A stretch of DNA of 64,000 nucleotides, taken from positions 2,836-66,835 of the forward strand of contig JAFTYO010000022.1 in assembly GCA_017464685.1 (NCBI GenBank), in the 5' to 3' direction. Each line of letters opens with the position of its first letter. Positions within the stretch are counted from its first letter, which is position 1. Positions 28,505-57,455 of the stretch are shown here, one piece after another. The notes below the pieces were generated by a model that worked only from the letters and a program-made list of their open reading frames with translations, made no database searches and was not told the origin of the DNA. The translations under genes were made by a program, and so were the position numbers. The stretch is from Alphaproteobacteria bacterium (GTDB lineage: Bacteria; Pseudomonadota; Alphaproteobacteria; RF32; CAG-239).

Positions 28505-28655
28505 AAAATTTGTTATACCGTTTCTTTTTCATTTTTTGCCTTTTTATTATTTTATAATATCGCCCTTACAAGAACTCAAGCAAATAATTCATATTTTTCT
28601 TTATACATTACAATAAACTGTTGCTATTTATCGCTTTGATAAATATGATGCGATT

Positions 28656-31986: not shown

Positions 31987-31987
31987 G

Positions 31988-32878: not shown

Positions 32879-32881
32879 ATT

Positions 32882-35977: not shown

Positions 35978-35978
35978 T

Positions 35979-38681: not shown

Positions 38682-38858
38682 TTTTAGGCCTTTTAATGAA
38701 TTTTAACAATGCAGCCAGTTTACAAGAGATGTTTGATACTTGCAAGCCTTAGAGTCATTCAATAACAAGATTCTTTAAGTATAGAGCTTAAAAAAAGGCT
38801 TCACGCCCTAAGACATGAAGCCGACACAATAATAACACTAGTGTTAAGTTAACTTATT

Positions 38859-39209: not shown

Positions 39210-39222
39210 CGTCTTACCCTCG

Positions 39223-39570: not shown

Positions 39571-39882
39571 TTTGTTAATCCTTATAAAAACTAAGCTGAT
39601 TTTCCCTTACATTTAAAATTATTAAAGAGATGTATGAATGTTATGAATTTTTGAGGCATTGTTTTATTTATTTTTCAACTACCGAGAAATTCTCGGCTGT
39701 TCAACTATCCGGAATTTCCGAACAGTTCGTTTTGCCTTAGAACTCGACTCATTATAGAATACATATTTTATAATAAGTCCTTATTTTTCAATGGCTTGAG
39801 AAATTCTGTTCTTGAACTTTTGTACGAACTCATTATAATTTATTTGTAAAATCAGATATTTATAATAAGTTTGGAGGTCAAA
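39571..39882. promoter_or_regulatory. 312-bp intergenic region with clustered palindromes, a candidate switch or operator
   Basis: Palindromes CCGAGAAATTCTCGG, CGGAATTTCCG and CGAACAGTTCG at 39682..39731. Short inverted repeats CTGATTTT/AAAATCAG lie near both ends (39596..39603 and 39849..39856). Confidence 0.35.
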
Positions 39883-40482
39883 ATGTCTATTGGTAAGCAA
39901 GCAAAAATCTTAAGCGACAAACAGCAAAATCTAACTCTGGCGCATTTAGAAACAACGCGCTATCCGTTACGCAATAAAATTATATTTTTACTCAGTTTCA
40001 AAGAAGGGCTGAGAGCCAAAGAAATTTCAAAGTTAGTTTGGGGTATGGTATGCAGTTCTGAGGGCAAAATTGCCGATGTCATTAATTTAAGCAACAACGC
40101 AAGCAAAGGTAAATACTCCGGCAGAATAATCCCTCTGCATAAAGAGTTGAAAATTTTACTGGCTGATTTGCTAGCTGAAAGGCAGAAAGATGAGTATTTC
40201 AATTTAGATAAGCCGGTTATTACGACCGAGCGAGGCGAGCATACGACGCCGCAAGTTATTGTCAATTTTTTCTATCACTTATATAAAACAATCGGCTTCA
40301 ACGGCTGTTCGTCACATAGCGGTCGCAGAACTTTTATTACAAATGCGGCAAAGCACATAAGTTTGGTCGGCGGCACATTGAACGATGTCAGATTACTTGC
40401 CGGTCACTCATCACTTGCTACCACCCAACGCTATATTGCTTACGACACCGAGGCTCAGAGAAGAATTGTAGAAATGAGCTAA
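39883..40482 (+). CDS. small tyrosine recombinase, FimB/FimE-sized and catalytic-domain only (~199 aa)
   Basis: Box I Arg (GLRAKEISKL), then HSGRRTF and LAGHSSLATTQRY (H-x-x-R...Y). There is no N-terminal arm-binding domain. RBS GGAGG lies before the ATG at 39883. Confidence 0.7.
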   Translation: MSIGKQAKILSDKQQNLTLAHLETTRYPLRNKIIFLLSFKEGLRAKEISKLVWGMVCSSEGKIADVINLSNNASKGKYSGRIIPLHKELKILLADLLAERQKDEYFNLDKPVITTERGEHTTPQVIVNFFYHLYKTIGFNGCSSHSGRRTFITNAAKHISLVGGTLNDVRLLAGHSSLATTQRYIAYDTEAQRRIVEMS

Positions 40483-40486
40483 CCAA

Positions 40487-41290
40487 CTAAGAAAATAAGT
40501 CCCCTTGAGCTTTAATTGGCGGATAAAATACCCCTGTAATTACAAAAGGGTTTCTGCTCTTTTTTAAATGATTATCATAAGTTGTTCCTAAAAACAAATA
40601 AATGTCTTTGTTCTTTACGAATCCCATGTATTTATCTTTGACTGCTTGACAAGCTTTTTCTTCATTATTTTCTTTTTTCATTATGTTCAAATATAATTGA
40701 GGTGCCTCCCAATCTTCAATCATAAGTTTGGATTCTACATCTTCATCATCTTCAAAAATATAGGAAAATACATATGGTATTTTAGGCATTAACACAAATT
40801 CTTTAGCTTCTTCGAAAAGGCTTTCTTGTTTAGCTTTATTTTTTATAAATTCAACTTTTTCTTTTGGCCATTCTCTGTCTGTAGGTTTTATATTAAATCC
40901 TGTAATCTTTGATGGCTTAAATGTAGCCAAAGAAAGTTTATTGTTTTGGGCTAAATCTATAATTTCTTTTTTATTTGTATATATTTTTGTTTTAAACACA
41001 AAATTCTTGCGTTCTTGCCACGCATTCTCTGTTCCTAATTTATTTAATAATTTAATGCTATCAACATTTGTAGGATTCAATGATTCAGGTCTAGGGTCAG
41101 CTGTTCGTTTTATTAAATCTAGTTCTATCCATTGATATTTACTATATTGCGTATATAATTTCCTGTATGGTACAGGATAAATGCGAATCCAATTTCCATT
41201 TTCGTCAATTCCTGCAGTACATACCGTTTCATCATATTTATTTGATAATGTAGGATAAGTTTTAACTGTTATCAAAACTTTCTTTTTCAT
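40487..41290 (-). CDS. hypothetical protein (267 aa), downstream partner of the DUF488 fusion gene
   Basis: Its start is 1 nt after the upstream stop. No motif recognised. Confidence 0.4.
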   Translation of the reverse strand: MKKKVLITVKTYPTLSNKYDETVCTAGIDENGNWIRIYPVPYRKLYTQYSKYQWIELDLIKRTADPRPESLNPTNVDSIKLLNKLGTENAWQERKNFVFKTKIYTNKKEIIDLAQNNKLSLATFKPSKITGFNIKPTDREWPKEKVEFIKNKAKQESLFEEAKEFVLMPKIPYVFSYIFEDDEDVESKLMIEDWEAPQLYLNIMKKENNEEKACQAVKDKYMGFVKNKDIYLFLGTTYDNHLKKSRNPFVITGVFYPPIKAQGDLFS

Positions 41291-41291
41291 C

Positions 41292-42188
41292 TTAAATATG
41301 CTCCAAAACCAAAGCCTTTTGCATTTTTACAAGAGCATTGGCAACTCTTGCGCGATGACACATATGATAATCTGCTTCGAAACAAGTTAATGCAACTCTT
41401 CTGTATTCTTTAATCAAATTTAAAATTTTATTCAAATAAAGTTCGCTATGAGCAAGAGTTGTTTTTTCATAATGGCTAAATAATTTTTCATAATCAGCCA
41501 TTGTGTTTAGTTCAATACGTTGTTCCGATTCGATGCCAAGTTGCGGAATATTAATATATTTAATGCCTACTCGTTCAATTAAATTTTGCATAGAAGATTT
41601 AGAAAAGCCATATTTCCTACTTATAGGATTTCTTCTTACATCGCACACCAGTTTTATGTTGTTTTTTATCAGTTTGTTTATATAAGCATCGACACTATTT
41701 GCTTCATACCCTATAGTAAACAACCTTTTTTCGTTTGACACATCTAGGGTATATCTGTCTTGCGTGGGAAATATTCTGTTATAAATTTCACTATTTATAG
41801 TATAATAAGGGTATCTTTCATATACATACCGAATTAAATCATCGCCCTTATATTTCGAATATATCTCCTTAAATTTTACAATTTTGTTCCTATCATTAGC
41901 ATCTAATAAAGAAATATAGTCTGTATCATTATCTGTTAATTTTAAGTTTTCAGAATAGGTTAAGTAATTAGATGCTTCTAAATTTCGCAAATCAGCATAA
42001 GACTGAAAAGAAAAGCAACCATATTTATATGGCACAAAATCATAATCTCTTTTTCCATCTGGCTGGCAGATTTGTGTATAAAGAAATAAATATTTTTGAA
42101 AATCAGTACGCTCTAATTCACCACCAAAAGCGTTCAATAATGCCAACATTAACTTTTGTCTGTAAAACATATCTTTTCCTAACAACAT
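41292..42188 (-). CDS. two-domain protein: N-terminal Panacea(DUF4065)-like region plus C-terminal DUF488 domain (298 aa)
   Basis: The C-terminal block LFTIGYEANSVDAYINKLIKNNIKLVCDVRRNPISRKYGFSK...GIKYINIPQLG matches the DUF488 consensus. The N-terminal RQKLMLALL...FVPYKYGCF weakly resembles Panacea/SocA. Confidence 0.5.
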   Translation of the reverse strand: MLLGKDMFYRQKLMLALLNAFGGELERTDFQKYLFLYTQICQPDGKRDYDFVPYKYGCFSFQSYADLRNLEASNYLTYSENLKLTDNDTDYISLLDANDRNKIVKFKEIYSKYKGDDLIRYVYERYPYYTINSEIYNRIFPTQDRYTLDVSNEKRLFTIGYEANSVDAYINKLIKNNIKLVCDVRRNPISRKYGFSKSSMQNLIERVGIKYINIPQLGIESEQRIELNTMADYEKLFSHYEKTTLAHSELYLNKILNLIKEYRRVALTCFEADYHMCHRARVANALVKMQKALVLEHI

Positions 42189-42432
42189 TAAAAGTTATAT
42201 AATATTTATACTTAATTTATCAAGTTTTATATCAAGTATATCCTATACAATATTTATTTCTGTTTTCTTAATCTAGTCAAATTTTATAATAATATTTATA
42301 CTAAAAAACATACCATAAATTTTATATATTATTTTTTATATATATTTTCCCTCGGTCAACATATGCTTAACTTCTTCTATAGCTATTATATCATCGTCTG
42401 TAAATGTTCTAATAATATCGAGTGAAGACGAC

Positions 42433-42476
42433 CAACACTAAAAAGCCACCCTTTATGGGTGGTTTTTTAGTGTTGA
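42433..42476. terminator. long perfect hairpin (19-bp stem), bidirectional terminator-like
   Basis: CAACACTAAAAAGCCACCC-TTTA-TGGGTGGTTTTTAGTGTTG. Confidence 0.5.
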
Positions 42477-43088
42477 ATGCATTTGCATTAGGTTCGAACT
42501 AGCGAAAAAGCCATTTGAATACAATCGAAGGGCGGACGGAAGTATGCGGTTCATCGTCAAATTATGGGGCAAGCTACCCATAGTCATTCCCCCAATAAGT
42601 AATAATAGAACCAATACCTATTATTGATAACATCACGCAAGCAAATAAAAAATCTCCTGTTGTAAGCATAACACAAAATTTTAATGGTTATTTACTTTTT
42701 TGTTTTCAATGAATTCCAGACATTGCTAATGTTGGTAATAGGGGTAATCTCAACCCTTTCGCCTTTTATTTCAGCGACTACCGGTAAACCCGTTTTTGAG
42801 CTTAAGGCTTTCATTTCTAACAAAATTTGATTGATGCAGACTCCTCTAATAGGCACTATAGTTACTGCGTTGAAACATTTAAACATAGTAATTCGTAATT
42901 TTAAGTAAAACATCATAATTTCAAATAGTGGGCAGATGATAATCTATTTTATTGTAAAATTCAAACATTTTAATTTTTGCAATAATAGTTTCTTTTAACT
43001 TTGCCACTACACCTGATAAAAATATGTGTTGACGAAAAATGTTTTTTTCTATATCATTATCTTAATTATAATGAATTTAAGGAGAAAG

Positions 43089-46929: not shown

Positions 46930-47982
46930 ATGACTTTTGATATTTCCAAATTTATTAAAGTAAACCAAGCATATTTTATTTGGGCAACTTTTATGGGACT
47001 ATTATACTTGTTCAGAGATATGTTCGGCCTTGTTTTTATTACATTTATTATGTGCTTTATTGTTTCAGGAATAACTACATTTATTCGTCAAAAACACCAC
47101 ATAAATCGTAGAGCCATAATTGTAGCTATTTATATTTTATTTTTAATCGGAGTTATTGCTTTTTTAACGATTATACCACAACGTCTTCTTTCTGAGGCAA
47201 TATCATTTACGGATCAATTACCAAATAGCATAAAGTCAACTAAAGAATGGCTAAATGTTCATTTTGCCGACAATGAATTTATATTTCCTTTATTGCCGCA
47301 AATAAAAGAAGCTTTGTTTCCTGACACTATTGTTGTCAGTGTATGGAATGTGGTTAGAGGAATTTTGGAAAAAGGGTTACATTATTTTGGTTGGTTTTTC
47401 TTGGCTATGCTATTTAGTTTTTTGATTATGTTTGATTTACCACATCTTTCAAAAGGAGTAAAAAATTTAAAATATACTAAACTTGCAGATTCCTATCAGG
47501 AAACAGCAGATAGTATATTGTTGTTTGCCAAGGTTGTAGGAGAAAACTTTCGTGCTCAACTGTTTATATCTACCGTCAACACATGCCTGACAGCCATTTG
47601 CCTTTATGCTTTAGATATCAAAGCAATAGCTCTGTTATGTACTATTGTGTTTATGTGCGGATTAATTCCGGTTTTAGGTATGATTATATCTTCAGTACCA
47701 ATTATCCTAATGGCTGTAAATACGGGTGGAATGGAACTGGGATTTTGGGCTATTGTTATGATAATCGGCATACATATGTTTGAAACATATGTGTTAAATC
47801 CCAGAATCGTATCTTCAATCATGCGTATTAATCCTGTTATGACACTCATTATTTTATATATTGCACATAGTGTTATCGGTATGTGGGGAATGTTGCTTGG
47901 TGTTCCAATTGCAGTGTATATATACAGAAAAATAAGTTTACCTAAAAGAAAAATAAGTTTACCGCGAAAAAACCGAGAATAA
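46930..47982 (+). CDS. AI-2E family transporter (PerM/UPF0118-like)
   Basis: 8-TM topology with the GLIPVLG and FETYVLNPR blocks. The C-terminus carries a tandem 21-bp duplication (KISLPKRK/KISLPRKN). Confidence 0.7.
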   Translation: MTFDISKFIKVNQAYFIWATFMGLLYLFRDMFGLVFITFIMCFIVSGITTFIRQKHHINRRAIIVAIYILFLIGVIAFLTIIPQRLLSEAISFTDQLPNSIKSTKEWLNVHFADNEFIFPLLPQIKEALFPDTIVVSVWNVVRGILEKGLHYFGWFFLAMLFSFLIMFDLPHLSKGVKNLKYTKLADSYQETADSILLFAKVVGENFRAQLFISTVNTCLTAICLYALDIKAIALLCTIVFMCGLIPVLGMIISSVPIILMAVNTGGMELGFWAIVMIIGIHMFETYVLNPRIVSSIMRINPVMTLIILYIAHSVIGMWGMLLGVPIAVYIYRKISLPKRKISLPRKNRE

Positions 47983-48039
47983 AAAATCAGCAATACAACC
48001 ACATAATATTTTCTCAACTACGGAATATTCCATTCATCA

Positions 48040-48170
48040 TATCTGATTTAAACACCTTTAAAGACTCTTTTTACTTGCAAAAAAAAAAAACGGTTTATGA
48101 TGCGACCTGAGAGGCTAATTTTTGACCTTTCAAGTACATTTAAACTTAATTTTTGTAAAGGATATAAATT
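48040..48170 (+). promoter_or_regulatory. conserved upstream region U1 of the SCPU-like family, with a 12-A tract (48079..48090) after TTGCAA
   Basis: GACTCTTTTTACTTGCA-A(n)-CGGTTTATGATGCGA... is shared with 49905..50034 and 56540..56671. Confidence 0.5.
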
Positions 48171-48626
48171 ATGAGAAAATATTTTCTTTTATCTGCTGTT
48201 GCTTTAATAGCTGCAACAACAGCAAACGCAACAACCGACTATGCCGAAGTAACCGCTAAGGCTACAATTGAAGTGGCAAACAAGTATGATTGTGGTGAAG
48301 TTAATTGGGGCACAATCGTTGTCAAACAAAACAATTCTGATATTTTGTTACAAATGGATTCGGATACTGGAAAAGTAACTTCTGGTTCAGATGATGTAAT
48401 TTCCGTTACTGGTGCATCTAGAGCACAGTGTGATAACTCGGAGACTGAGTTGTACCCTGAGGGGATGAATATACCTTCCATAACATTAAGAGCCGATGGT
48501 AAAACACAAACTCTTACCTATGCTCCGGACGGTTACGGCGATTTTATAGGTGGCAGCTTAACAATTCCTGCCAAAATTGAAGCCGGCACTTATACAGGTT
48601 CATTTACTATTACTGAAACTTACTAA
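48171..48626 (+). CDS. SCPU/Csu-pilin-like secreted protein, paralog 1 (151 aa)
   Basis: Signal peptide (MRKYFLLSAVALIAATTANA). The mature domain has a Cys followed by a W/FG motif, and the C-terminus (GTYTGSFTITETY) matches the spore-coat-U/Csu pilin end motif. Confidence 0.5.
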   Translation: MRKYFLLSAVALIAATTANATTDYAEVTAKATIEVANKYDCGEVNWGTIVVKQNNSDILLQMDSDTGKVTSGSDDVISVTGASRAQCDNSETELYPEGMNIPSITLRADGKTQTLTYAPDGYGDFIGGSLTIPAKIEAGTYTGSFTITETY

Positions 48627-48637
48627 TAATTTACCTA

Positions 48638-48672
48638 CCGCCTCGGGCTTAAAAACCTCGAGGCGGTTTTTT
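48638..48672. terminator. bidirectional rho-independent terminator
   Basis: CCGCCTCG-GGCTTAAAAAC-CTCGAGGCGG followed by TTTTTT. Confidence 0.65.
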
Positions 48673-48676
48673 ATTT

Positions 48677-49048
48677 TCACAACCAAGTTAAGACAAGAAA
48701 CAATATCGGTGATAAAAAAATAAGCTTTGCCAATGTGGGGTGATTTTTCATATTACTGGTACCGATTAAGAACAAAAGAAAAAACTCTATTAATAAATCT
48801 TGCATATTGCCAATATAAACTTCTTGATTGATATAATACCATAAACCTTGAGTATATTCAGAATTAAAAATAGCATCATTTTCTGTAGGCGGATTTAGAT
48901 ATCCCCAAATCAATATAAAATAAAACAACGAATATAGTGCAACATACCACTTAAAATCCAAAAGCAATTTAATTGTATTGACAATATGTTCTTTAACAAT
49001 ATTTATGGCTCGCATTTGATATTCCTTATTGGTGTAACATTTTTTCAT
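48677..49048 (-). CDS. small 3-TM membrane protein (123 aa), candidate immunity partner of the upstream toxin-like gene
   Basis: Lies immediately downstream of the DUF2778-like gene on the same strand. Three hydrophobic helices. Confidence 0.35.
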   Translation of the reverse strand: MKKCYTNKEYQMRAINIVKEHIVNTIKLLLDFKWYVALYSLFYFILIWGYLNPPTENDAIFNSEYTQGLWYYINQEVYIGNMQDLLIEFFLLFLIGTSNMKNHPTLAKLIFLSPILFLVLTWL

Positions 49049-49105
49049 ATTACCAGTAAAAACATTAAAAGCAAGATTAAATATTCTTGCCTCTAATGTT
49101 TATGC

Positions 49106-49738
49106 TTACCAATTATTCGGATATTTTACATATACAGGTACAGATTCTTGACAATCATCTAAATAGTCATTTAATTTTCCCGTTTGCCACGGAATATCAA
49201 TACAACCCGCAGAGCCTTTACTTAGTCCACCATGTATCGTAAATCCTGAACGGCCATATGTATCGGTATTTTCATCAGGTTGCAACCAAACACGGTTTAT
49301 TCCCCACGCTGGAATTGACCCTGGCCATTTTCCGCGTTTTCCGAAACCAATAATAGAATCAATTAATGATATATTCTGTCTTTGGTCTTGATTAGCATAA
49401 TATATCCCCTCAGGTAACGGACCTTTATTAGCTACATTTTGATATCGTGAACTTTGATAATCTCGATGACCTGATTGAGCATCCAGATTAGCATATTGTC
49501 CCATATTATTATATAATCCTAAATTTTGACCATTGAATGTCATATAACAATTCGGATTGTTATAACTGTCATTTGGGCAATAACCATAATTATCGTTGGA
49601 TACATAATTACCGCCATACATAGTATCATAGTACCTTTGTCGATTGGCATATTCTTTAAGCTTATTAAGAAAATTCTGATTCGAATATCCTGTGTTGTAA
49701 GTTTGTTCATAAGATTGATATTTTGGATAATTATACAT
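49106..49738 (-). CDS. DUF2778/Tlde1-like protein with an L,D-transpeptidase catalytic fold and an N/Y/Q-rich N-terminus (210 aa)
   Basis: The C-terminal block GPLPEGIYY...GRSGFTIHGGLSKGSAGCID has H and Cys arranged as in YkuD-type L,D-transpeptidases and the Tlde1 effector family. The N-terminal ~110 aa are low-complexity N/Y/Q-rich. Confidence 0.5.
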   Translation of the reverse strand: MYNYPKYQSYEQTYNTGYSNQNFLNKLKEYANRQRYYDTMYGGNYVSNDNYGYCPNDSYNNPNCYMTFNGQNLGLYNNMGQYANLDAQSGHRDYQSSRYQNVANKGPLPEGIYYANQDQRQNISLIDSIIGFGKRGKWPGSIPAWGINRVWLQPDENTDTYGRSGFTIHGGLSKGSAGCIDIPWQTGKLNDYLDDCQESVPVYVKYPNNW

Positions 49739-49904
49739 ATTTTTTTCCTTTCAAAAGTTATTGTTATTTTCATTACAAAATTTGTTATAACACGAAAAAT
49801 CTAAAATATCAATAAAAATATATTAAAAACAATATTTTTAATATTTAAACTCATATATAACAAAACACTAATTATCAACTCTCGGTTTTTGCTCATACCT
49901 CTAC

Positions 49905-50034
49905 ACCATTTTTGATTTAAATCCACAATTAGACTCTTTTTACTTGCAAAAAAAACGGTTTAAGATGCGATATGAAAGGCTAATTTTTAGCTTTTCAAAT
50001 TAAGTTTAACTATTTTTGTAAAGGATTAAATAAA
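49905..50034 (+). promoter_or_regulatory. conserved upstream region U2, with an 8-A tract (49948..49955) and the palindrome GATTTAAATC
   Basis: The same block as U1 and U3, differing mainly in A-tract length. Confidence 0.5.
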
Positions 50035-50481
50035 ATGAGAAAATATTTTCTTTTAACTGCTGTTGCTTTAATAGCTGCAACAACAGCAAACGCAACAACC
50101 GACTATGCCGAAGTAACAGCAAAAGCTACAATCGAGGTAGCAGGTACTTTTTCTTGTTCTAAAATCAATTATGGTAACATTGTAGTAAAACAAAAAAATA
50201 GAGCTTTTTCTATTCTTGCCCATGATTTATCTTCTGATGGTGGTTATGCTGATGACCTTATTTCAATCACAGGTGCTAATAATGCTGTATCAACATGTAC
50301 TGCAACTATTCCAGATAGTGTTGGTGGTTATGTTGAGCTGACAAATAGCAATGGTGATAAAATAGGAGTTGAATATCATGGAGAAAATACTACTAATTTA
50401 TACTCATTCATTAGTATCCCTGCCGAGGTTAAAGCCGGTGAATATGAAGGTTCATTTACCTTAACTTTAACTCAAGAATAA
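50035..50481 (+). CDS. SCPU/Csu-pilin-like secreted protein, paralog 2 (148 aa)
   Basis: Its signal peptide is identical to paralog 1 for 20 aa. C-terminus GEYEGSFTLTLTQE. Confidence 0.5.
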   Translation: MRKYFLLTAVALIAATTANATTDYAEVTAKATIEVAGTFSCSKINYGNIVVKQKNRAFSILAHDLSSDGGYADDLISITGANNAVSTCTATIPDSVGGYVELTNSNGDKIGVEYHGENTTNLYSFISIPAEVKAGEYEGSFTLTLTQE

Positions 50482-50499
50482 ATCTCATATCAACTTAAA

Positions 50500-50526
50500 A
50501 AAGAGGGGTAGCAACCCCTCTTTTTC
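50500..50526 (+). terminator. rho-independent terminator
   Basis: AGAGGGG-TAGCAA-CCCCTCT followed by TTTTT. Confidence 0.65.
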
Positions 50527-50675
50527 GACCTTTTGCAACTGATATCAACTTTTGCCAAAGGAACATTTTCGGCTCAACTCTGAAACTTAAAGTCTGCTTG
50601 ACTTTTATTATCATCATCGAACACCTATGATATAGTCCTAACTTTTGACTTTACAATCATTATAAAACTTATTTA

Positions 50676-51584
50676 CTATAAAACGATGTTTTTCTCAAAA
50701 GTAAAACCTCGCAAAAGCTCCTTAATTTGCATTGCCTTTTTGCCTTGTCTTTGAACTTTATCAACCCGTAATGCTTTATCTCTACAGCCGATTATCAAAG
50801 CTTTTTGTCCCTCGATGATTTTACCAGCATCAGCTTTAATATCTTCAACGGTTGCTTTTAAGAGCTTAAATCTTTCGCCCTGATACTCAAAAAACATAGC
50901 CGGAAACGGATTAAAAGCTCTGATTTTTCTTTCTAAAACCTCTGCCGAATCGTCAAAATTTATTTTTGTTTCTTCTTTATCCAGTTTGTTGGCATAAGTT
51001 ACCAAATTTTGGTCTTGCTCAATTGGGACAATATTATCAAAATCTGATAAAACCTCACTGATTAAATCAGCTCCGATGACTGACAGTTTGTCATGTAAAA
51101 CACCGCCTGTGGTATTACCATCAATTTTTACCTCGCCTTTTTTATACATAGCACCTGCATCTAAGGCTTCAACAACTTGCATTATGGTAACTCCGCTTTT
51201 ATCGTCACCATATTCAATGCTTCGTTGAATTGGCGCTGCTCCTCGCCACCTTGGCAACAACGAGGCATGAACATTGATGCACCCTTTATCAAATGCTTCA
51301 ATTACGGCTTTAGGCAAAATTAAACCGTATGCCGCCACAACCGAAATATCAGCTTTTAACGAGCAAAACCTTTGTTGTTCATCTTCCGTTTTTAAGGTTT
51401 TTGGTGTCCTAACTTCAATACCAAACTTTTCCGCCAACAAATGAACAGGTGTTTTGTTTATTTGTTTTCCCCTGCCCGCTTCTTTCGGAGCTCTGGTATA
51501 AACGCAGACAACCTCGTGTTCTTTGATAAGTCTTTCCAAAACCGGAACGGCAAAATCAGGGGTTCCCATAAATACTATTTTCAT
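50676..51584 (-). CDS. fmt: methionyl-tRNA formyltransferase
   Basis: MKIVFMGTPDFAVP...HASLLPRWRGAAPIQR, the formyltransferase signature. Confidence 0.9.
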   Translation of the reverse strand: MKIVFMGTPDFAVPVLERLIKEHEVVCVYTRAPKEAGRGKQINKTPVHLLAEKFGIEVRTPKTLKTEDEQQRFCSLKADISVVAAYGLILPKAVIEAFDKGCINVHASLLPRWRGAAPIQRSIEYGDDKSGVTIMQVVEALDAGAMYKKGEVKIDGNTTGGVLHDKLSVIGADLISEVLSDFDNIVPIEQDQNLVTYANKLDKEETKINFDDSAEVLERKIRAFNPFPAMFFEYQGERFKLLKATVEDIKADAGKIIEGQKALIIGCRDKALRVDKVQRQGKKAMQIKELLRGFTFEKNIVL

Positions 51585-51599
51585 TTTTCTTCCTTTTAT

Positions 51600-51629
51600 A
51601 AATAAAAAGCCGCTAACAAAAGCGGCTTA
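51600..51629 (-). terminator. rho-independent terminator after the ppiD-like gene
   Basis: AAGCCGCT-TTTGTT-AGCGGCTT followed by a T-run on the minus strand. Confidence 0.55.
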
Positions 51630-51636
51630 ATGTTTT

Positions 51637-53520
51637 TTATAAATCAGTTAAGCCCATAAGCTTATATTTTACTCTGATTTTATATTCATCGGCATAGCTT
51701 TTGAGCAACGCATCGGTAAATGCGCTTAAGAGCTGTTGCTCTGCATTGCGTTTAATCAAGTCTTTTTCCTTAAGACTCAATTCAACCTCATTGTCAAAAT
51801 CTTGAACAGCAACGGCAACAACATAGTCCTCACCATATTGCATCTGATGAGGTGTATTAAGCGAATCGGCAAACATTGCTCTGATATCGGCATAGTTCAA
51901 GTTTGCAAATGTCTCATTTCTGGTAATCGGTCTTGAATTATACACATCTAAACCATAACGAGGGCCAACATCTGACAAATCATCGCCATTTTCCAAGTCG
52001 TGCATTATGTCATTTAATTTTTCTTGAGCTATGGCAGCTTTTTCATTGTCAGACCAAAGTTTAACAATGTCAGAACGAACAGTTTCAAGAGCTTTAGGGT
52101 GAGCTTCTTTAATGTTGTCAACTCTTAAAGCAAATAAGCCGTTATCGGTTTCCAAAACCTGAGATGTTTCACCTAAAGAATACAAAAATCCGACATCGGC
52201 AAAATCATTGCCCGCAATGAGGTCTTTAAGTTCATCAGGTGAAGATGTTGCAGTTCTGTCTTCAGCATAACCTGTCACTTTAGCAAGTTTAACATTCATC
52301 TCTTGTGCTATGGTTTCCAAATCTGTTCCGGCGCCGAGTTTGTCTTCAATGGAGGCCAAAACCTCATAGCTTGCATCATAAAGCCTTTCATCTTTTAAGA
52401 TTTTTTCAATTTCGGCTTTGGCTTGAGCATAATCGGTTTTTGAACTTTCTTTAATGTCGGCAACTTGCATAATTTGCCACATATCACCAACCTTTACAGG
52501 TTTGGTAAACTCGCCTTTTTTAAGAGCAAAAACCTGTTCCGACAACTCAGTAATGAGTTCATCAACGGAAGTAAAACCAAGATCTGTATCTTCTTTGCTT
52601 TGGTTTGCAAGCTCTTGAGCGATGTTGTAAAAATCTTTTCCTTGTTTGAGCTCAAAAAATGCTTTATTAGCAAGTTTTTCTTCATCGAACATCATTTGCA
52701 ACACTTGACGAGTTTCAGGTGTTTCATAATCCGACTTATTGTCTTCATAATAAAAGGCAATATCATCATCACTAATTTTTATATTGTCAAAAATGTTTTG
52801 CATCGGCACGTACAAAACTGTTAAATCTCTACGTTCGGGTTCCATAAATCCAACAGAAAAATCTTCATAATATTGGTTGATTTCTTCTTCGGAAATCGTT
52901 CTGTCGATTTTCATCTCTGAAGGTTTAATATTTACATATTTAAATGTACGACGCTTATTATCAACTTTTGTCTGAGCTTTAAGCAAAACTTGAGGAACAT
53001 TGATATTTAAAACCTGATTATCAATAAGCAAACGGCGAGCCAAATTGCGACTGATAGCTTTTACATATTCGGCTTCAGATAAACCGCTTTGAGATAAAAG
53101 CTCTCTGAATATATCTCGGTTGAAATTTCCGTTTTCATCACGAAATGTAACATCATTAACAATAAGACTGTGGATAAAATTCGGACTAAACAATACATTG
53201 TGCTTTTTGGCAGTTCTATCCATAATCGAATCGTTTAAGAGCTTTTGCGACAATCCGTAGACAATGGACGTCCTCATTTCATCGGTAAGTTCTTGATTAT
53301 CACCCAAAAGTTTTGAAGCAAGGGCAATTTCGTTTTGAGCCTGATAGGCAAACTGAGACTGCAAAATTTCAATGTTATCCACTTTTATAACGGCACGATT
53401 GTTGTTGGCATTGCTAATATAACTGCTGACGCCGAACAAGGACATAAAGCTGAGTGCGGTTAAGGTCAATATGAGCTTTGCGGCCCAACCTTTTTGTGCT
53501 TTTGCTAATTTAGTTATCAT
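51637..53520 (-). CDS. ppiD: periplasmic chaperone/peptidyl-prolyl isomerase, PpiD-like (627 aa)
   Basis: N-terminal TM anchor, a SurA-N-like chaperone region, and a size typical of PpiD. Confidence 0.65.
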   Translation of the reverse strand: MITKLAKAQKGWAAKLILTLTALSFMSLFGVSSYISNANNNRAVIKVDNIEILQSQFAYQAQNEIALASKLLGDNQELTDEMRTSIVYGLSQKLLNDSIMDRTAKKHNVLFSPNFIHSLIVNDVTFRDENGNFNRDIFRELLSQSGLSEAEYVKAISRNLARRLLIDNQVLNINVPQVLLKAQTKVDNKRRTFKYVNIKPSEMKIDRTISEEEINQYYEDFSVGFMEPERRDLTVLYVPMQNIFDNIKISDDDIAFYYEDNKSDYETPETRQVLQMMFDEEKLANKAFFELKQGKDFYNIAQELANQSKEDTDLGFTSVDELITELSEQVFALKKGEFTKPVKVGDMWQIMQVADIKESSKTDYAQAKAEIEKILKDERLYDASYEVLASIEDKLGAGTDLETIAQEMNVKLAKVTGYAEDRTATSSPDELKDLIAGNDFADVGFLYSLGETSQVLETDNGLFALRVDNIKEAHPKALETVRSDIVKLWSDNEKAAIAQEKLNDIMHDLENGDDLSDVGPRYGLDVYNSRPITRNETFANLNYADIRAMFADSLNTPHQMQYGEDYVVAVAVQDFDNEVELSLKEKDLIKRNAEQQLLSAFTDALLKSYADEYKIRVKYKLMGLTDL

Positions 53521-53684
53521 ATTTTTTTCCTACTATTAATAAAAAACATTTTTTGCCATTATAGTTTAATATTTATTTATTGCAATTACAAAATATTGGT
53601 GTTGAAAACTTTTTTTAACTGGAAAAATAAAAATCAATGTGCTAAAGATTTTTATTAGTGAATTTTAATTAAAAGGAATTTAAT

Positions 53685-54449
53685 ATGGCTCGTAAAATTT
53701 TAATTGCCGGTAACTGGAAAATGAACGGTCTTTTACAAGACGGAACAAATTTGGCTAAAGAAGTGGCAAATGAGGTTAAAAAACTCGGCAAACCAGAATG
53801 TGAATTTTTGGTTTGTCCGCCGTTTACTTTGCTTGACAGGGTTAAAAAAGCTTTACGCGGTTCCAAGGTTGCATTGGGTGCGCAAGATTGTCATATGGCC
53901 GAAAAAGGTGCTCATACAGGTGATATCAGTCCCTTAATGCTTAAAGATTTGGGCTGCACATATGCTTTGATAGGACACTCCGAAAGAAGAACAAATCATG
54001 GTGAAAGCAATGAGCTTGTTTGTAAGAAAGCCTTAAGTTTGCATGCATCAGGTTTAAAAGCCGTAATTTGCATCGGCGAGACCTTAGAAGAAAGAGAATC
54101 GGGAAAAACTATTGAGGTTTGTACAAATCAGATTATGGGCTCGGTTCCGGAAACCGCAAATGCAACCAACACCGTAATTGCTTATGAGCCGGTATGGGCA
54201 ATCGGCACCGGAAAAACACCGACAGCTACCGAAGTTCAAGAGACACATGCTGCCATCAGAAAAGTTGTTGCTAAAAAGTTAGGAAAATCCGTTGCAAATA
54301 AAATGCGTTTGTTGTATGGTGGCTCAGTTAAACCTTCTAACGCAACCGAGCTTCTGGCTTTAGAAGATGTTGACGGAGCATTAATCGGGGGTGCCAGCTT
54401 AAAAGCAACTGATTTTATGAGTATTGCTCAAAGTGTTTGTGGAAAATAA
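53685..54449 (+). CDS. tpiA: triosephosphate isomerase
   Basis: IAGNWKMNG, AYEPVWAIGTGKT and LYGGSV motifs. Confidence 0.9.
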   Translation: MARKILIAGNWKMNGLLQDGTNLAKEVANEVKKLGKPECEFLVCPPFTLLDRVKKALRGSKVALGAQDCHMAEKGAHTGDISPLMLKDLGCTYALIGHSERRTNHGESNELVCKKALSLHASGLKAVICIGETLEERESGKTIEVCTNQIMGSVPETANATNTVIAYEPVWAIGTGKTPTATEVQETHAAIRKVVAKKLGKSVANKMRLLYGGSVKPSNATELLALEDVDGALIGGASLKATDFMSIAQSVCGK

Positions 54450-54464
54450 GAAAAGGAAAATAAA

Positions 54465-54797
54465 ATGGGATCGGTATTGTTAGTTATACATTTAATTACG
54501 GCAATTTTTTTGGTCGTCATCATTTTGATGCAAAGATCATCCGGTGGGGCCTTAAACGGTTTAGGTGGCGGTTCAGGTGCAAACAGTTTTTTAAGTGCCA
54601 GAGGAACAGGAAATCTATTAACCCGTTTAACTGCAATTTTAGCAACAATTTTCTTTGTAACCAGCATTTCGCTTGCCATATATTATAAAGGAGCTGAACG
54701 TAAAAGTTCTTCAATTTTAGATGTTGCTCCCGCAACCAAAAGTATACCGACTACATCTGCCGAACCGGTAGTACCAAGCGTTCCACAGGCTGAGTAA
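54465..54797 (+). CDS. secG: preprotein translocase subunit SecG
   Basis: Two TM helices with a Gly-rich loop (GGALNGLGGGSGANSF). Confidence 0.85.
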   Translation: MGSVLLVIHLITAIFLVVIILMQRSSGGALNGLGGGSGANSFLSARGTGNLLTRLTAILATIFFVTSISLAIYYKGAERKSSSILDVAPATKSIPTTSAEPVVPSVPQAE

Positions 54798-54886
54798 GTA
54801 TATGGTCACAAACAAAAAATAGGCACCTTAAAAAGACATAAGGTGCCTTTCTCACTTTTAAACAGATAAAAAAGGACTTTAAAAAG

Positions 54887-56476
54887 ATGATAAATCCAAA
54901 GACAAAATTTATATTTATAACCGGCGGTGTTGTATCTTCATTGGGAAAAGGTTTGGCTTCCGCCTCTTTAGCTGCAGTGTTGCAAGGACATGGTTTTAAG
55001 GTGCGTTTAAGAAAACTAGATCCGTATTTAAATGTTAATCCCGGAATTATGAGCCCATATCAGCACGGAGAAGTTTTTATTACCGATGACGGCACGAAAG
55101 CTGATTTGGATTTAGGCCATTATGAAAGATTTTCAGGTGTATCAGCAACCAAGTTTGACTCAATTACCACCGGTAAAATTTATCAAAGAGTGATTGATAA
55201 AGAAAAACGAGGTGAATATAACGGTGCAACCATTCAGGTAATTCCGCATGTTACCAATGAAATTAAAGATTTTATTATTTCAAATTTAGACGATGAAGAT
55301 TTTGTGCTGTGTGAAATCGGCGGCACGGTAGGTGACATTGAGGGACAACCATATTTAGAGGCTATTCGTCAAGTTGCTTATGATTTGGGGCGCAACAGAG
55401 TTATGTTTATTCATCTTACGTTATTACCGTTTATTCCTACTGCCGGTGAGCTCAAGACTAAACCGACGCAACATTCGGTAAAAAAATTGCAAGAATACGG
55501 CATTCAACCGGATATGCTTTTATGTCGTTCACAAATTAAGATTCCTGAAAATGAAAAAAGGAAATTGGCATTATTTTGCAATGTTAGAGAAGAAAATGTT
55601 ATTGCCGCTCTTGATGTAAGCAACATTTACCAAGTTCCGCTTGCATATTCTAATGAGGGAATGGACAGAGCCGTTTGTCGATATTTTAACATTGACAATG
55701 ACAAACCGGCCGATTTAAGCAAATGGCAAAAAATTGTTGAAACCATTAAAACACCGGAGGGGCAAATTTGTGTCGGGGTAGTCGGAAAATATACAGAACT
55801 TTTGGAAGCATACAAATCTTTGCACGAGGCCATTAAGCACGGAGCAATTGCAAATCATTATCAGGTAAAAATAAAATGGATAGATGCCAAAAGTTTAGAC
55901 ACACAAAATTTGAGTGCATATTTTAAAGATGTAAACGCTATTATTGTTCCGTCAGGAGCAGGAGTTGAAGGCAACAACGGAAAACTTGCGGCCATCAGAT
56001 ATGCCAGAGAAAACAACATTGTCTTTTTAGGAATTTGTTTGGGTATGCAACTGGCAGTAATTGAATATGCTCGCAATGTTTTGGACATTAAAGATGCAGA
56101 TTCTGCTGAGTTTAATAACAATTGCACACCGTTTGTAAAAATTAATGATACAAAAAAAACTCGTATCGGAGCCCATCTTTGCTGTTTAGATAACGAATCG
56201 AAAATATGCCAAATTTATAATTCATCTGAAATTGAGGAAAGACATTATCATAAGTATGAGATAAACTCCGATTATGAAAAATTGTTGAAAAAAGCCGGAA
56301 TGGTTGTCAGTGGAAAATCACCTGACGGCAAATTGTTCGAAGCAATTGAGCTTAAAAATCACCCTTGGTTTATCGGTGTTCAGTTTCACCCTGAGTTAAA
56401 ATCAAAACCGTTTGCTCCGCATCCGTTGTTTGTATCTTTAATCAAGGCAGCTATTGATAATAGCCGTTTGATGTAA
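54887..56476 (+). CDS. pyrG: CTP synthase
   Basis: N-terminal ITGGVVSSLGKG and a C-terminal glutamine amidotransferase domain (GICLGMQ, HPE). Confidence 0.95.
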   Translation: MINPKTKFIFITGGVVSSLGKGLASASLAAVLQGHGFKVRLRKLDPYLNVNPGIMSPYQHGEVFITDDGTKADLDLGHYERFSGVSATKFDSITTGKIYQRVIDKEKRGEYNGATIQVIPHVTNEIKDFIISNLDDEDFVLCEIGGTVGDIEGQPYLEAIRQVAYDLGRNRVMFIHLTLLPFIPTAGELKTKPTQHSVKKLQEYGIQPDMLLCRSQIKIPENEKRKLALFCNVREENVIAALDVSNIYQVPLAYSNEGMDRAVCRYFNIDNDKPADLSKWQKIVETIKTPEGQICVGVVGKYTELLEAYKSLHEAIKHGAIANHYQVKIKWIDAKSLDTQNLSAYFKDVNAIIVPSGAGVEGNNGKLAAIRYARENNIVFLGICLGMQLAVIEYARNVLDIKDADSAEFNNNCTPFVKINDTKKTRIGAHLCCLDNESKICQIYNSSEIEERHYHKYEINSDYEKLLKKAGMVVSGKSPDGKLFEAIELKNHPWFIGVQFHPELKSKPFAPHPLFVSLIKAAIDNSRLM

Positions 56477-56498
56477 TTATTTTTGTATTAAAATTATA

Positions 56499-56536
56499 AC
56501 CCATACAGTTAAACTTTTTTCTGTATGGGTTTTCTT
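56499..56536 (+). terminator. rho-independent terminator after pyrG
   Basis: CCCATACAG-loop-CTGTATGGG followed by TTTT. Confidence 0.6.
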
Positions 56537-56539
56537 ACC

Positions 56540-56671
56540 TCATTTTTGATTTAAATCCACATTAAGACTCTTTTTACTTGCAAAAAAAAAAAACGGTTTA
56601 TGATGTGATGTAAGAGGTAAAAATTGCCCTCTTAAAACTTAAAGTTAAACTATTTTTAAGGATTAAAACAT
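56540..56671 (+). promoter_or_regulatory. conserved upstream region U3, with a 12-A tract (56582..56593) and GATTTAAATC
   Basis: The same block as U1 and U2. Confidence 0.5.
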
Positions 56672-57202
56672 ATGAGAAAATATTTTCTTTTAGGTGCTGT
56701 TGCTTTGATGATTTCAGGCACAGCAAATGCCACCGGATATGCATCGGGTGTTTTTGCAACAACAGTTAATTTAAAAAAAGCATCTGCCATTGAATGTTCT
56801 CAAGCTCTAGATTTTGGAACAGTGATAGTCACAACTTTAGAAGATAGTTCTGGCACAGTCGAGATATTGGGTAAGAATGGAAAAAATGTAAGCAGTGGAA
56901 GTAATGGAATATTCATAGAAGGCACACCTACACCTGCTAAATGTACTATATCCGGCGATGCAGCTTATGCAATAGCAGATACTAATGCAACAATTACTTT
57001 TGAAAGGCTAAATCCTGTAATTAACAGTGCTGATACAGGAGTAGAATTTTCTACAGATGACTCTTATGTTGCTTATAACGAGGAAGAGTATTATGAAGGT
57101 GATGGAAATATGGACCTGTTTATTGGTGGTAAATTATCAATTTCGGAACTTTATACTGAAGGTGAATTTACAGAAAACATTCTAATGAAAATTACATACT
57201 AA
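56672..57202 (+). CDS. SCPU/Csu-pilin-like secreted protein, paralog 3 (176 aa)
   Basis: Signal peptide MRKYFLLGAVALMISGTANA. The block ...ECSQALDFGTVIV... matches the SCPU Cys and FG motif. Confidence 0.5.
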   Translation: MRKYFLLGAVALMISGTANATGYASGVFATTVNLKKASAIECSQALDFGTVIVTTLEDSSGTVEILGKNGKNVSSGSNGIFIEGTPTPAKCTISGDAAYAIADTNATITFERLNPVINSADTGVEFSTDDSYVAYNEEEYYEGDGNMDLFIGGKLSISELYTEGEFTENILMKITY

Positions 57203-57210
57203 TCTTTCAT

Positions 57211-57242
57211 AAAAAGAGGAGCTTCTTGCTCCTCTTTTTTTA
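57211..57242. terminator. bidirectional terminator
   Basis: AGAGGAGC-TTCTT-GCTCCTCT followed by TTTTTT. Confidence 0.65.
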
Positions 57243-57455
57243 AGACTTTTTAACCACAACCACTCTATCGGGTACAATTTGGGTATAAGCAAGCCATATT
57301 GCAGACAAGCCTACCAGCATATACACAATACGGCTTAACATACTCATATCTCCGAACAAGGCCGAAACCAAGTTAAATCCGAACAAACCTATTAAGCCCC
57401 ATGTTATACCGCCGACGATTGTGAGCCACAAAGCTAATTTTTCCATAAAATACAT
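57240..57455 (-). CDS. DUF378 small membrane protein (71 aa)
   Basis: LTIVGGITWGLIGLFGFNLV...YMLVGLSAIW matches the DUF378 pattern. Confidence 0.65.
   Translation of the reverse strand: MYFMEKLALWLTIVGGITWGLIGLFGFNLVSALFGDMSMLSRIVYMLVGLSAIWLAYTQIVPDRVVVVKKS

Follow-up and report, generated by a model that had tools for sequence, protein, structure and literature searches.

A poly-A tract in the putative promoter cassette of a large, dispersed family of secreted DUF4402 proteins from a gut alphaproteobacterium

Three cassette-borne genes in the window

The 64-kb stretch of DNA analysed here (the window) carries three paralogous genes, each preceded by a shared upstream block, hereafter the cassette (Table 1). 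The three upstream regions align with 82% mean column identity, and AGACTCTTTTTACTTGC-A(n)-CGGTTTA(T/A)GAT is present without variation in all of them; a 25-mer core was found three times in the window (with at most three mismatches) against 0.00 times expected from shuffles. The near base-for-base alignment described in the initial annotation was thus borne out, as were the A-runs of 12, 8 and 12 nucleotides, flanked by the -35-like TTGCAA and the -10-like TA(T/A)GAT. The shared block itself is real but measures ~130 bp rather than the ~110 bp first given, and it also holds a conserved leader hairpin and a Shine-Dalgarno sequence. The palindrome previously noticed in copies 2 and 3, GATTTAAATC, is perfect only there and reads GATTTAAACA in copy 1. 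In copy 1 the run starts with the two terminal A's of TTGCAA; the distance from this hexamer to the -10-like box is 15 bp (TATGAT), 11 bp (TAAGAT) and 15 bp (TATGAT) in copies 1, 2 and 3, respectively.

Table 1. Features of the three cassettes and their genes in the window
Copy	Feature	Position	Strand	Remarks
1	Cassette	48040..48170	+	
1	Imperfect palindrome GATTTAAACA	48045-48054	+	
1	Invariant core AGACTCTTTTTACTTGC	48062-48078	+	
1	Candidate -35, TTGCAA	48075..48080	+	4/6 matches; assigned from hexamer match and module boundary
1	A12 run	48079..48090	+	15-bp putative -35/-10 spacer; A12 in 4 assemblies
1	Candidate -10, TATGAT	48096..48101	+	shared module ends here in non-family genes
1	5'-leader hairpin (UGAGAGGC...CCUUUCA)	48108..48132	+	
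1	Shine-Dalgarno AAGGA	48158-48162	+	
1	CDS	48171..48626	+	151-aa Sec-secreted DUF4402 pilin-like protein; signal peptide ...ANA/TT
1	Terminator hairpin, then T-run	48637..48667	+	dG -19.9
2	Cassette	49905..50034	+	
2	Palindrome GATTTAAATC	49914-49923	+	
2	Core	49931-49947	+	
2	Alternative -35-like hexamer TTTACT	49939-49944	+	16 bp spacing
2	TTGCAA	49944-49949	+	
2	A8 run	49948..49955	+	11-bp spacer to TTGCAA; A8 in 5 assemblies
2	TAAGAT	49961-49966	+	
2	Hairpin	49973-49997	+	
2	Shine-Dalgarno	50021-50025	+	
2	CDS	50035..50481	+	148-aa paralog
2	Terminator hairpin	50498..50525	+	dG -17.4
3	Cassette	56540..56671	+	
3	Palindrome GATTTAAATC	56548-56557	+	
3	Core	56565-56581	+	
3	TTGCAA	56578-56583	+	
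3	A12 run	56582..56593	+	15-bp spacer; A12 in 4 assemblies and at the syntenic SIG55 locus
3	TATGAT	56599-56604	+	
3	Hairpin	56611-56634	+	two doubly compensated pairs versus family consensus
3	Shine-Dalgarno	56658-56662	+	
3	CDS	56672..57202	+	176-aa DUF4402 protein; Pfam 35.5 bits
3	Terminator hairpin	57211..57239	+	dG -19.8

The A12 runs of copies 1 and 3 are the only A or T runs of at least 9 nucleotides in the window, where runs of at least 12 are expected by chance 0.06 times for A and 0.06 times for T. When 0.52 Mb of DNA from SIG55 was added, a MAG of a sister gut bacterium that is 91.8% identical to the window in the neighbouring housekeeping genes, from fmt through pyrG, all A/T runs of at least 10 fell within cassettes, with a maximum of 8-9 elsewhere. 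A G9 run in the same window frameshifts a giant autotransporter and is a candidate homopolymer switch.

In Pfam searches DUF4402 (PF14352; gathering threshold 25.2 bits) matched copy 3 above the cutoff (35.5 bits, E = 1.8e-8) and copy 1 just below it (25.0 bits), with no match for copy 2. All three nevertheless align with homologues that have a precomputed PF14352 hit and are named 'DUF4402 domain-containing protein'. The proteins had initially been likened to SCPU/Csu pilins. Their predicted fold looks pilin-like, if weakly so, whereas the family assignment found no support: SCPU (PF05229) gave no match to copies 1-3 at E up to 1, and a search of PDB chains with the family profile returned nothing with an E-value of 10 or less. 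The signal peptides, described as identical, are near-identical (MRKYFLL[S/T/G]AVAL[I/M]...ANA). The family alignment displays conserved ends, a hypervariable middle and two invariant cysteines, in agreement with the divergence of mature domains noted earlier, and supports a multigene, surface-type family of apparently secreted proteins with a constant 5' region and a variable mature part.

For structural comparison we considered the archaic (sigma) chaperone-usher pilins CsuA/B of Acinetobacter (7zl4) and CupE/SCPU of Pseudomonas (8cio), as well as Caf1 and CS6. Like the Csu/Cup pilins, the family members have about 130 mature residues with two conserved cysteines and a conserved C-terminal strand (G-E-Y-x-G-x-F-T-V-T-x-T-Y). 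Their conserved N-terminal segment TTDYAEVTAKATIEVA has alternating hydrophobic residues and is unstructured in the AF2 monomer model (pLDDT 83), as a candidate donor strand would be. Unlike for Csu/Cup pilins, the copies examined have no adjoining chaperone or usher gene: as the initial annotation stated for the neighbourhood, none was found in the 64-kb window, nor among 71 ORFs of at least 450 aa in 0.52 Mb of SIG55 loci, whose sequences were inspected by eye without HMMs.

Family size and run lengths in related genomes

The three paralogs are representatives of a much larger set. A search for further members, as the initial annotation had proposed, revealed about 90-100 cassette copies in SIG55, scattered as single-gene units. 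In the genome collection, 73 stretches contain the exact 22-mer AGACTCTTTTTACTTGCAAAAA, all except one of them from SIG55. Among 100 distinct instances, A12 is by far the most common run (80), followed by A11 (11), A13 (3) and A9 (3). A census anchored on gene starts, and so independent of the 22-mer, recovered 82 genes, of which 67 (82%) have exactly A12, nine A11, two A9 and one A13, while three lack the exact core; CTTTTTACTTGC, directly 5' of the A-run, is invariant in 79 of the 82. About 90 downstream ORFs of 140-185 aa start with MRKYFLL, and identity at the nucleotide level reaches into the signal-peptide codons. Overall, run length ranges from 8 to 13 among paralogs, and genes behind runs of deviant length retain intact ORFs. 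The window organism carries the cassette with A12 at one more locus, its fourth, and a third MAG has it too. Metagenome assemblies are broken up by the cassette, and counts of the family in MAGs are therefore probably too low.

Run lengths were compared between assemblies at 11 loci (about 50 locus-by-assembly observations), all lengths being those of the assembly consensus, in which minority lengths are invisible. Ten of the 11 loci have the same, locus-specific length in 3-9 assemblies each: the three window copies (Table 1), three loci with A11 (three, nine and four assemblies) and four with A12 (three, three, five and five). The remaining locus, P0050, is polymorphic, with A12 in four assemblies, A13 in two and A10 in one, and encodes a 100% identical protein throughout; the A13 runs lie at contig starts inside a repeat and might be an assembly artefact, but other contigs beginning at that very point show A12. 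The independence of the assemblies is limited, since many probably trace back to a single inoculum of goat faeces (PMC8007473) or to one study of ruminants. At the Tlde1-adjacent site of copy 2, where the window has A8, the orthologous SIG55 locus (L025) has A9, so that the short run appears to be an old, stable state kept across ~8% divergence.

Promoter identity of the module and the role of the A-run

In SIG55 the module also precedes genes for Lcl_C-like Cys-rich secreted proteins and type-IV-pilin-like genes. At these non-family genes the similarity ends right after the -10 box (CGGTTTAGAAT), a TAnnAT box, which suggests that the module is a promoter. The leader hairpin is 99.3% paired across 84 copies; 35/35 of its one-sided changes give G.U on the + strand, versus four unpaired cells. 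Together with the compensated pairs of copy 3, this pairing argues that the region just past the -10 box is transcribed. The hairpin, thus supported at the RNA level, begins 6 nt after the -10 box and would therefore lie near the 5' end of the putative transcript. Judged from the sequence, the A-run probably fills the spacer between a -35 and a -10 element. The hexamers themselves are candidates, TTGCAA agreeing with the -35 consensus at only 4/6 positions, and a consensus promoter scan with a 16-18-bp spacer does not call the site. A spacer of 15 bp is at the lower limit for E. coli-type sigma-70.

The explanation we favour, and to which we give a slightly better than even chance, is that the shared block is a promoter/leader/signal-peptide cassette whose slip-prone spacer slowly tunes or silences single paralogs. 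It would serve a very large dispersed family of DUF4402 proteins that are Sec-secreted and would fold like chaperone-usher pilins. The family belongs to a lineage of gut Alphaproteobacteria that are AT-rich and uncultured, and each of its genes is presumably a separate transcription unit. In order, each unit would comprise a possible activator site (the palindrome, about 25 bp upstream of the -35), the -35-like TTGCAA, a spacer of which the A-run makes up nearly all, the -10 box TA(T/A)GAT, a hairpin likely stabilising the transcript, a strong Shine-Dalgarno sequence and the signal peptide MRKYFLLSAVAL...ANA, followed by a mature protein whose N- and C-terminal strands are conserved and whose middle is hypervariable, and by the gene's own terminator. 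Selection or homogenisation may keep the canonical A12, with its 15-bp spacer, in about 80-85% of copies; since an uninterrupted A12 is prone to slippage, single copies would drift to A11, A13, A9 or A8. Such a change would shift the -35/-10 spacing and thereby lower, silence or re-register transcription of that paralog. As run-length states appear heritable and mostly stable, the outcome would be slow per-gene tuning or on/off alleles. Copy 2 has both A8 and a -10 box in which a T is replaced by A; most likely it has long been a low/off allele, or it uses an alternative register. If A12 is the 'on' state, about 80 paralogs would be expressed together, an unusual situation.

The initial annotation went further and saw a fit to an antigenically variable, phase-variable surface family. 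Fast variation of the vlp type, in which slipped-strand gain or loss of A's toggles paralogs and cells show a changing subset of ~100 antigens, is plausible, and several observations agree with it: the homopolymer apparently lies between -35 and -10 boxes, as in Mycoplasma hyorhinis vlp genes; A12 is long enough for slippage; runs of at least 10 are confined to cassettes; and lengths vary from 8 to 13 among paralogs with identical flanks. Likewise, samples that share the same protein at P0050 differ in run length (A12, A13 or A10), genes with deviant runs are intact, the secreted proteins have hypervariable middles, and the G9 run offers an independent candidate homopolymer switch in the window. 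We nevertheless regard this reading as doubtful. Tract lengths turned out to be fixed among assemblies at 10 of the 11 loci, with P0050 as the variable one; known contingency families have a broad off-length spread, whereas 82% of the present runs are exactly A12, which looks like a constrained spacer and not like a freely drifting contingency tract; and the orthologous locus has kept its short run (A8 versus A9) over ~8% divergence.

The A-run might alternatively be no spacer at all but a UP-element-like sequence, bent or rigid DNA, or a site for a regulator or silencer, lying upstream of a promoter that relies mainly on its -10 box. Its exact length would then be of little importance, and the shape of the DNA or the binding of a protein would account for its conservation. 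Here the invariance of CTTTTTACTTGC, as expected of a recognition element, and the length of exactly 12 in most copies, indicative of constrained spacing, make such a role improbable. Moreover, in a more distant genome (L030) an A11 run is followed by seven rather than five bases before TATCAT, so that TTGCAA and the -10 box are 16 bp apart, suggesting that distance and not A content is conserved. Weak -35 elements are common in AT-rich small genomes, with A-tracts as proximal UP subsites, and this fits a non-spacer role, as do the TTGCAA spacings beyond the usual optimum (15 bp, and 11 bp in copy 2), the persistence of A8, A9 and A11 copies with intact ORFs and the interrupted run AAAAATAAAAAA in a diverged module before a permease gene (L076). 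It is very improbable, in our view, that the block serves mainly recombination, as homology arms or as the site of a recombinase, with the A-run as a passenger made uniform by gene conversion, because neither the module boundary at the -10 box of unrelated genes nor the structured leader and Shine-Dalgarno sequence would be explained, and the window contains no family-associated recombinase gene. Recombination nonetheless appears to have left traces. At syntenic loci of the window and SIG55 the proteins are non-orthologous (24-28% aa identity) between flanks about 92% identical, the copy 2 body shares 86% aa identity with a SIG55 paralog located elsewhere in that genome (L073), and L114 and L115 encode the same protein as L112 behind cassettes with other bases at the variable positions, although chimeric-looking contigs could be repeat-spanning assembly artefacts. 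These data, with nucleotide identity continuing into the signal-peptide codons, indicate that gene bodies at syntenic loci were exchanged between species, the conserved 5' and 3' ends appearing to be homology arms. A recombination role is compatible with the promoter cassette that we favour; body swaps through the conserved ends would add a second layer of variation.

Comparison with known systems of surface variation

A poly-A run in the promoter is known from the vlp genes of Mycoplasma hyorhinis (PMC10502178). Like these, the present genes constitute a surface-protein family in which each gene would be a separate transcription unit with a homopolymeric A-run in its promoter, and in which promoter, 5' region and signal peptide are highly conserved and mature regions divergent. 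The vlp run lengths switch at high frequency, 17 A being the 'on' state, whereas here A12 prevails and consensus lengths are mostly stable. In addition, vlp comprises 3-8 clustered lipoprotein genes of a wall-less Mollicute, as opposed to a Gram-negative alphaproteobacterium with about 90-100 scattered genes whose pilin-like products are Sec-cleaved. In 1995 Citti and Wise reportedly placed the vlp A-run between the -35 and -10 boxes.

Gram-negative promoter-spacer switches include the poly-G of Neisseria porA, the poly-C of opc and of Bordetella fim, and the TA repeats of Haemophilus hifA/B. As in these systems, which include fimbrial targets, a slip-prone repeat would lie between the -35 and -10 elements of a surface-structure gene. 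They involve one or few genes and G/C or TA repeats, whereas here one A12 module serves a genome-wide family and also precedes other secreted-protein genes. Similarly, Csu/Cup operons have 1-4 subunit genes, compared with ~100 here. Neisseria pilE/pilS, Anaplasma msp2/p44 and Mycoplasma gallisepticum vlhA resemble the present family in having dozens of paralogs, conserved at the ends and hypervariable in between, and in the signs of gene-body movement between loci; vlhA also has a repeat count upstream of each gene. Unlike in those systems, each copy here is complete with putative promoter, Shine-Dalgarno sequence, signal peptide and terminator, and there is no single expression site and no silent cassettes. 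A tentative extension, which we consider rather unlikely, is a combinatorial counterpart of vlp/vlhA and pilS in Gram-negative commensals, namely uncultured gut Alphaproteobacteria, in which ~100 complete, individually promoted pilin-like genes, switched singly by A12 slippage and varied by body exchange through the cassette ends, encode chaperone-usher-type subunits with interchangeable polymerisation interfaces, possibly without a linked usher.

Should expression depend on the A-run, this lineage would be giving over about 3% of a small genome to some 100 alternative secreted pilin-like proteins, each gene with a built-in mutable dial. Among Gram-negative gut commensals, such a repertoire would rank with the largest known for surface variation, with a bearing on interactions with phage, IgA and the niche in ruminant and human guts. 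DUF4402 would gain a first functional context, its model suggesting a pilin-like fold in which the exposed loops are hypervariable and the interface strands conserved. The natural series A8, A9, A11, A12 and A13 in otherwise identical promoters is suited to establishing the spacer-length rules of alphaproteobacterial RNA polymerase.

The upstream cassette and the genes behind it

The upstream stretches of copies 1-3, the three paralogous pilin-like genes of the window (see table), align with a mean column identity of 82% when the region is read directly, and none of them departs from AGACTCTTTTTACTTGC-A(n)-CGGTTTA(T/A)GAT. The core 25-mer occurs three times with at most three mismatches, against 0.00 occurrences expected from shuffles, which confirms the shared block with A-runs of 12, 8 and 12 described in the initial annotation. 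This cassette spans ~130 bp rather than the ~110 bp proposed there, with the leader hairpin and the Shine-Dalgarno sequence included; the palindrome said to lie just upstream is present, but imperfect in copy 1. No A/T homopolymer of at least nine nucleotides occurs in the 64-kb window (GC content 34.7%) apart from the two A12 runs, against a chance expectation of 0.06 runs of at least 12 A, and likewise 0.06 of T. Further palindromes or copies of the TACTTGC-A(n) module were represented in the window by chance-level matches only.

The products of all three ORFs begin with MRKYFLL..AVAL...ANA and continue with TT or TG; this is a Sec signal peptide that has an AXA cleavage site but lacks a lipobox. 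The signal peptides are near-identical, not identical as first stated. Each ORF is followed by a strong terminator hairpin of its own. Copy 3 matches Pfam DUF4402 with 35.5 bits, above the cutoff of 25.2; copy 1, with 25.0 bits, narrowly misses it, and copy 2 has no match to this domain; DUF4402-annotated homologues align with all three. In the family alignment, a conserved N-terminal zone of 55 residues (signal peptide plus TTDYAEVTAKATIEVA.TF.C...DFGTIVVKQNN) is followed by a hypervariable middle of ~60-80 residues and a conserved C-terminal L.IPA.V.AGEYTGSFTVT.TY, and two cysteines are invariant over the whole family protein.

Neither Foldseek of a family protein nor the family profile gave a significant match in PDB, NCBIfam contained no match for the family, and a literature search found no papers mentioning DUF4402. 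As stated initially, chaperone and usher genes are not nearby: none lies within the 64-kb window and none was seen among 71 ORFs of at least 450 aa in 0.52 Mb of related loci from SIG55, a sister MAG. Usher candidates among the large SIG55 ORFs turned out to be PPase, MscK-like, DsbD-like and TamB-like proteins, autotransporters and similar. An assignment of the family to the chaperone-usher pilins is not secured, because these searches found no partner genes, the SCPU signature is absent and the evidence from the fold is ambiguous.

Features of the window, in order of position
Feature	Position	Strand	Remark
127-aa ORF	9241-9624	+	signal peptide, ankyrin-like
G9 run	9613-9621	+	ends the 127-aa ORF
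Autotransporter-like ORF	9854-18391	+	2845 aa
Serine recombinase	24276-25796		ORF list
Snf2-type helicase	28656-31547		ORF list
DNA methyltransferase and restriction-enzyme-like ORFs	32882-38681		ORF list
Tyrosine recombinase	39871-40482		ORF list
Copy 1 A-run	48079-48090	+	A12
Copy 1 ORF	48171-48626	+	
Membrane ORF	48677-49048	-	123 aa, after Tlde1 gene
Tlde1-domain protein	49106-49738	-	210 aa, between copies 1 and 2
Copy 2 A-run	49948-49955	+	A8
Copy 2 ORF	50035-50481	+	
Copy 3 A-run	56582-56593	+	A12
Copy 3 ORF	56672-57202	+	

A large family with probable exchange of gene bodies

A scan of one genome per species located the exact 22-mer AGACTCTTTTTACTTGCAAAAA in 73 stretches; with one exception, these belong to a single MAG, 'Alphaproteobacteria bacterium SIG55' (SUUV01). 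SIG55 is closely related to the window organism: over 6 kb, the fmt-ppiD-tpiA-secG-pyrG block is 91.8% identical. After removal of duplicates, 100 cassette instances remained, ~90 of them followed by intact MRKYFLL genes of 140-185 aa. Family genes are scattered singly or in small groups among housekeeping genes, at a density of ~1 per 20 kb, in agreement with three copies in the 64-kb window. The same cassette with A12 also occurs in a copy from a third MAG (GCA_017408505.1) and in a fourth copy of the window organism, which sits between tig and prfA. Scanning metagenome contigs for the 22-mer retrieved one irrelevant match (L086; an A5 run without surrounding cassette). When 1.84 billion cluster representatives were searched exhaustively with the family profile, only 357 clusters matched at E <= 0.001; this subfamily is thus a lineage-restricted expansion. 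In many assemblies contigs begin or end within the cassette (L003, L011, L012, L108, L117-L120, L126, L129-L132 and many SIG55 contig ends); it is an assembly-breaking repeat, so the family is probably under-counted in MAGs.

Proteins encoded at syntenic loci are 24-28% identical within flanks that are ~92% identical (copy 3 versus L015, copy 2 versus L025), and copy 2 has its closest relative, 86% (aa) and 89% (nt) identical in the gene body, in a SIG55 paralog at a different locus (L073). Taken together, these comparisons imply that gene bodies have been replaced between loci. Identical proteins also occur behind cassettes differing at variable cassette positions, a pattern for which repeat-spanning assembly chimeras are possible. 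Given the evidence for exchange, the hypervariable middle is probably swapped by way of two homology arms, the 5' cassette and the 3' end, both of them conserved. In the closest cross-species pairs dN/dS is 0.35-0.78, and in these pairs short-run copy 2 is not separable from the others. By analogy with chaperone-usher pili, retention of the N- and C-terminal strands with free loops would be the pattern of interchangeable subunits of one polymer.

The module as a putative promoter

The same module, from the palindrome through the core and A-run to the TAGAAT -10 box, lies upstream of genes outside the family, in SIG55 (L028:3677, L058:4457, L041, L023 on the - strand and L049:326) and in MAG JAZKXV01 (L030:7661). 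Three of those in SIG55 are genes for secreted, Cys-rich proteins whose C-terminus weakly resembles Lcl_C/DUF1566, and two encode type-IV-pilin-like proteins, one behind A8 and one behind A12. In these unrelated genes similarity stops directly after CGGTTTAGAAT, so that the 3' edge of the shared module is a TAnnAT box, resembling a portable promoter. A diverged module with an interrupted run (AAAAATAAAAAA) is located upstream of an amino-acid-permease-like gene in SIG55 (L076:5930); the module is thus not limited to surface proteins and its run can be broken.

A hairpin, UGAAAGG...CCUUUCA, starts 6 nt past the -10 box and is 99.3% paired over 84 copies. Changes on one side of the stem number 35, each of which yields G.U on the + strand; four cells are unpaired, and the stem of copy 3 is shifted in register, with double compensation at two pairs. 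Aligned columns contain zero double-sided changes, and with so little variation in the stem the shuffle controls do not reach significance; support for the hairpin consists of the G.U asymmetry and the copy 3 stem. This argues with moderate confidence for structure in the leader RNA and hence for a start site just past the -10 box. Hairpins at the extreme 5' end of an mRNA, e.g. that of ompA, are known stabilisers. Rfam matched no known RNA families in 47900-57400, leader included.

The best -35-like hexamer, TTGCAA (4/6), overlaps the start of the run and is separated from the -10 box by 15 bp with A12 and 11 bp with A8; of these, 15 bp lies at the lower end of the range for E. coli-type sigma-70. 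A sigma-70 consensus scan with 16-18-bp spacers did not call the cassettes, a result that is uninformative rather than negative because both cassette spacers are outside its range. In the more distant JAZKXV01 genome (L030), the module has 7 instead of 5 bases between its A11 run and TATCAT, giving 16 bp. With the A8 and A9 alleles, a second hexamer, TTTACT (4/6), comes to lie at 16 and 17 bp and, speculatively, could account for the persistence of short-run copies. By inspection, sigma-54 (GG-N10-GC), ECF/EcfG (GGAAC-N16-CGTT) and sigma-28 motifs do not fit, and a possible upstream promoter, TTGATT plus TAGACT, was rejected because of its 12-bp spacer and a -10 box that is not conserved. The centre of the palindrome GATTTAAATC, ~25 bp upstream of the -35 box, would place it near a class I activator position.

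Length and stability of the A-run

The 22-mer search is biased to intact cores, and the census was redone from gene starts. The exact CTTTTTACTTGC core was present in 79 of 82 genes, with A12 in 67, A11 in nine, A9 in two and A13 in one; the upstream region of the other three is mutated or different. All A/T runs of at least 10 in 0.52 Mb of SIG55 DNA sit in a cassette or cassette variant, the maximum elsewhere being 9; the run is thus an exceptional sequence kept long, uninterrupted and at one length. Its length deviates in ~16% of copies, mostly by one-step contractions, versus any substitution in the adjacent 12-nt core in ~4%; the run is thus a mutational hot spot, as slippage predicts.

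Switching was assessed across independent assemblies in which the encoded protein is 100% identical, using consensus sequences, which conceal minority run-length alleles. Run length was constant at window copies 1 (A12, four contigs), 2 (A8, five) and 3 (A12, four), at P0064 and P0060 (A12, three each), P0105 and P0004 (A12, five each), P0038 (A11, three), P0117 (A11, nine) and P0115 (A11, four). It varied only at P0050, one of 11 loci, with A12 in four contigs, A13 in two and A10 in one. The A13 contigs, from two samples, begin inside the cassette, and contig starts are a weak point; A13 is nevertheless probably real, because P0004 contigs beginning at the same place read A12. The A10 contig differs in its 5' flank. 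A single goat-faeces inoculum, divided among parallel enrichments (PMC8007473), is very likely the source of the SIG55-type samples, a link based on the MAG name and on JGI 3300029305 contigs identical with SUUV01 contigs. When the P0117 locus of the JGI samples (L090, L092) is compared with that of SIG55 (L091), the A11 cassette is immediately preceded by a transposase gene of the IS110 family.

Between the window and SIG55, the syntenic loci adjacent to pyrG and secA have A12 in both, and the Tlde1-adjacent locus has A8 versus A9; copy 2 is a long-standing short-run allele. Run lengths are heritable, locus-specific and mostly stable, with rare changes of ±1 or -2, a pattern that fits slow slippage-driven tuning. 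The phase-variable promoter proposed initially is thus supported in part. High-frequency switching of the vlp type is a live but unproven possibility, on which these run lengths do not decide either way. The most fitting description of the block is a promoter cassette, conserved and with a slip-prone A12 spacer, that belongs to a very large family of pilin-like genes.

Analogous switches, with a homopolymer in the promoter spacer, exist in fimbrial and outer-membrane-protein genes of Gram-negative bacteria. The nearest analogue in function is the vlp family of M. hyorhinis, in which, as Citti & Wise (1995) are reported in PMC10502178, insertions and deletions in a promoter poly-A tract toggle separate transcription units. 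Unlike vlp, a lipoprotein family, the proteins described here are Sec-cleaved and pilin-like, and the host is a Gram-negative gut alphaproteobacterium. The cassette further differs from its analogues in scale and layout (~90-100 dispersed complete genes), in its near-uniform run length and in that further genes for secreted proteins use its module as well.

The Tlde1 domain, an L,D-transpeptidase-type toxin domain, was detected (Pfam 39.6 bits) in a protein with a Tyr/Asn-rich N-terminus, for which the 123-aa membrane ORF could be the immunity protein; the pair is kept beside a short-run cassette in SIG55. Elsewhere in the window, the G9 run is the only G/C run longer than 6, and the autotransporter-like gene next to it is frameshifted as assembled. 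With G8 or G11 the frame would continue into the 2845-aa ORF and give one secreted protein of ~2970 aa, making the run a candidate coding-region poly-G phase switch. The region ~24000-43000 is, from the ORF list only, a probable mobile or defence island.
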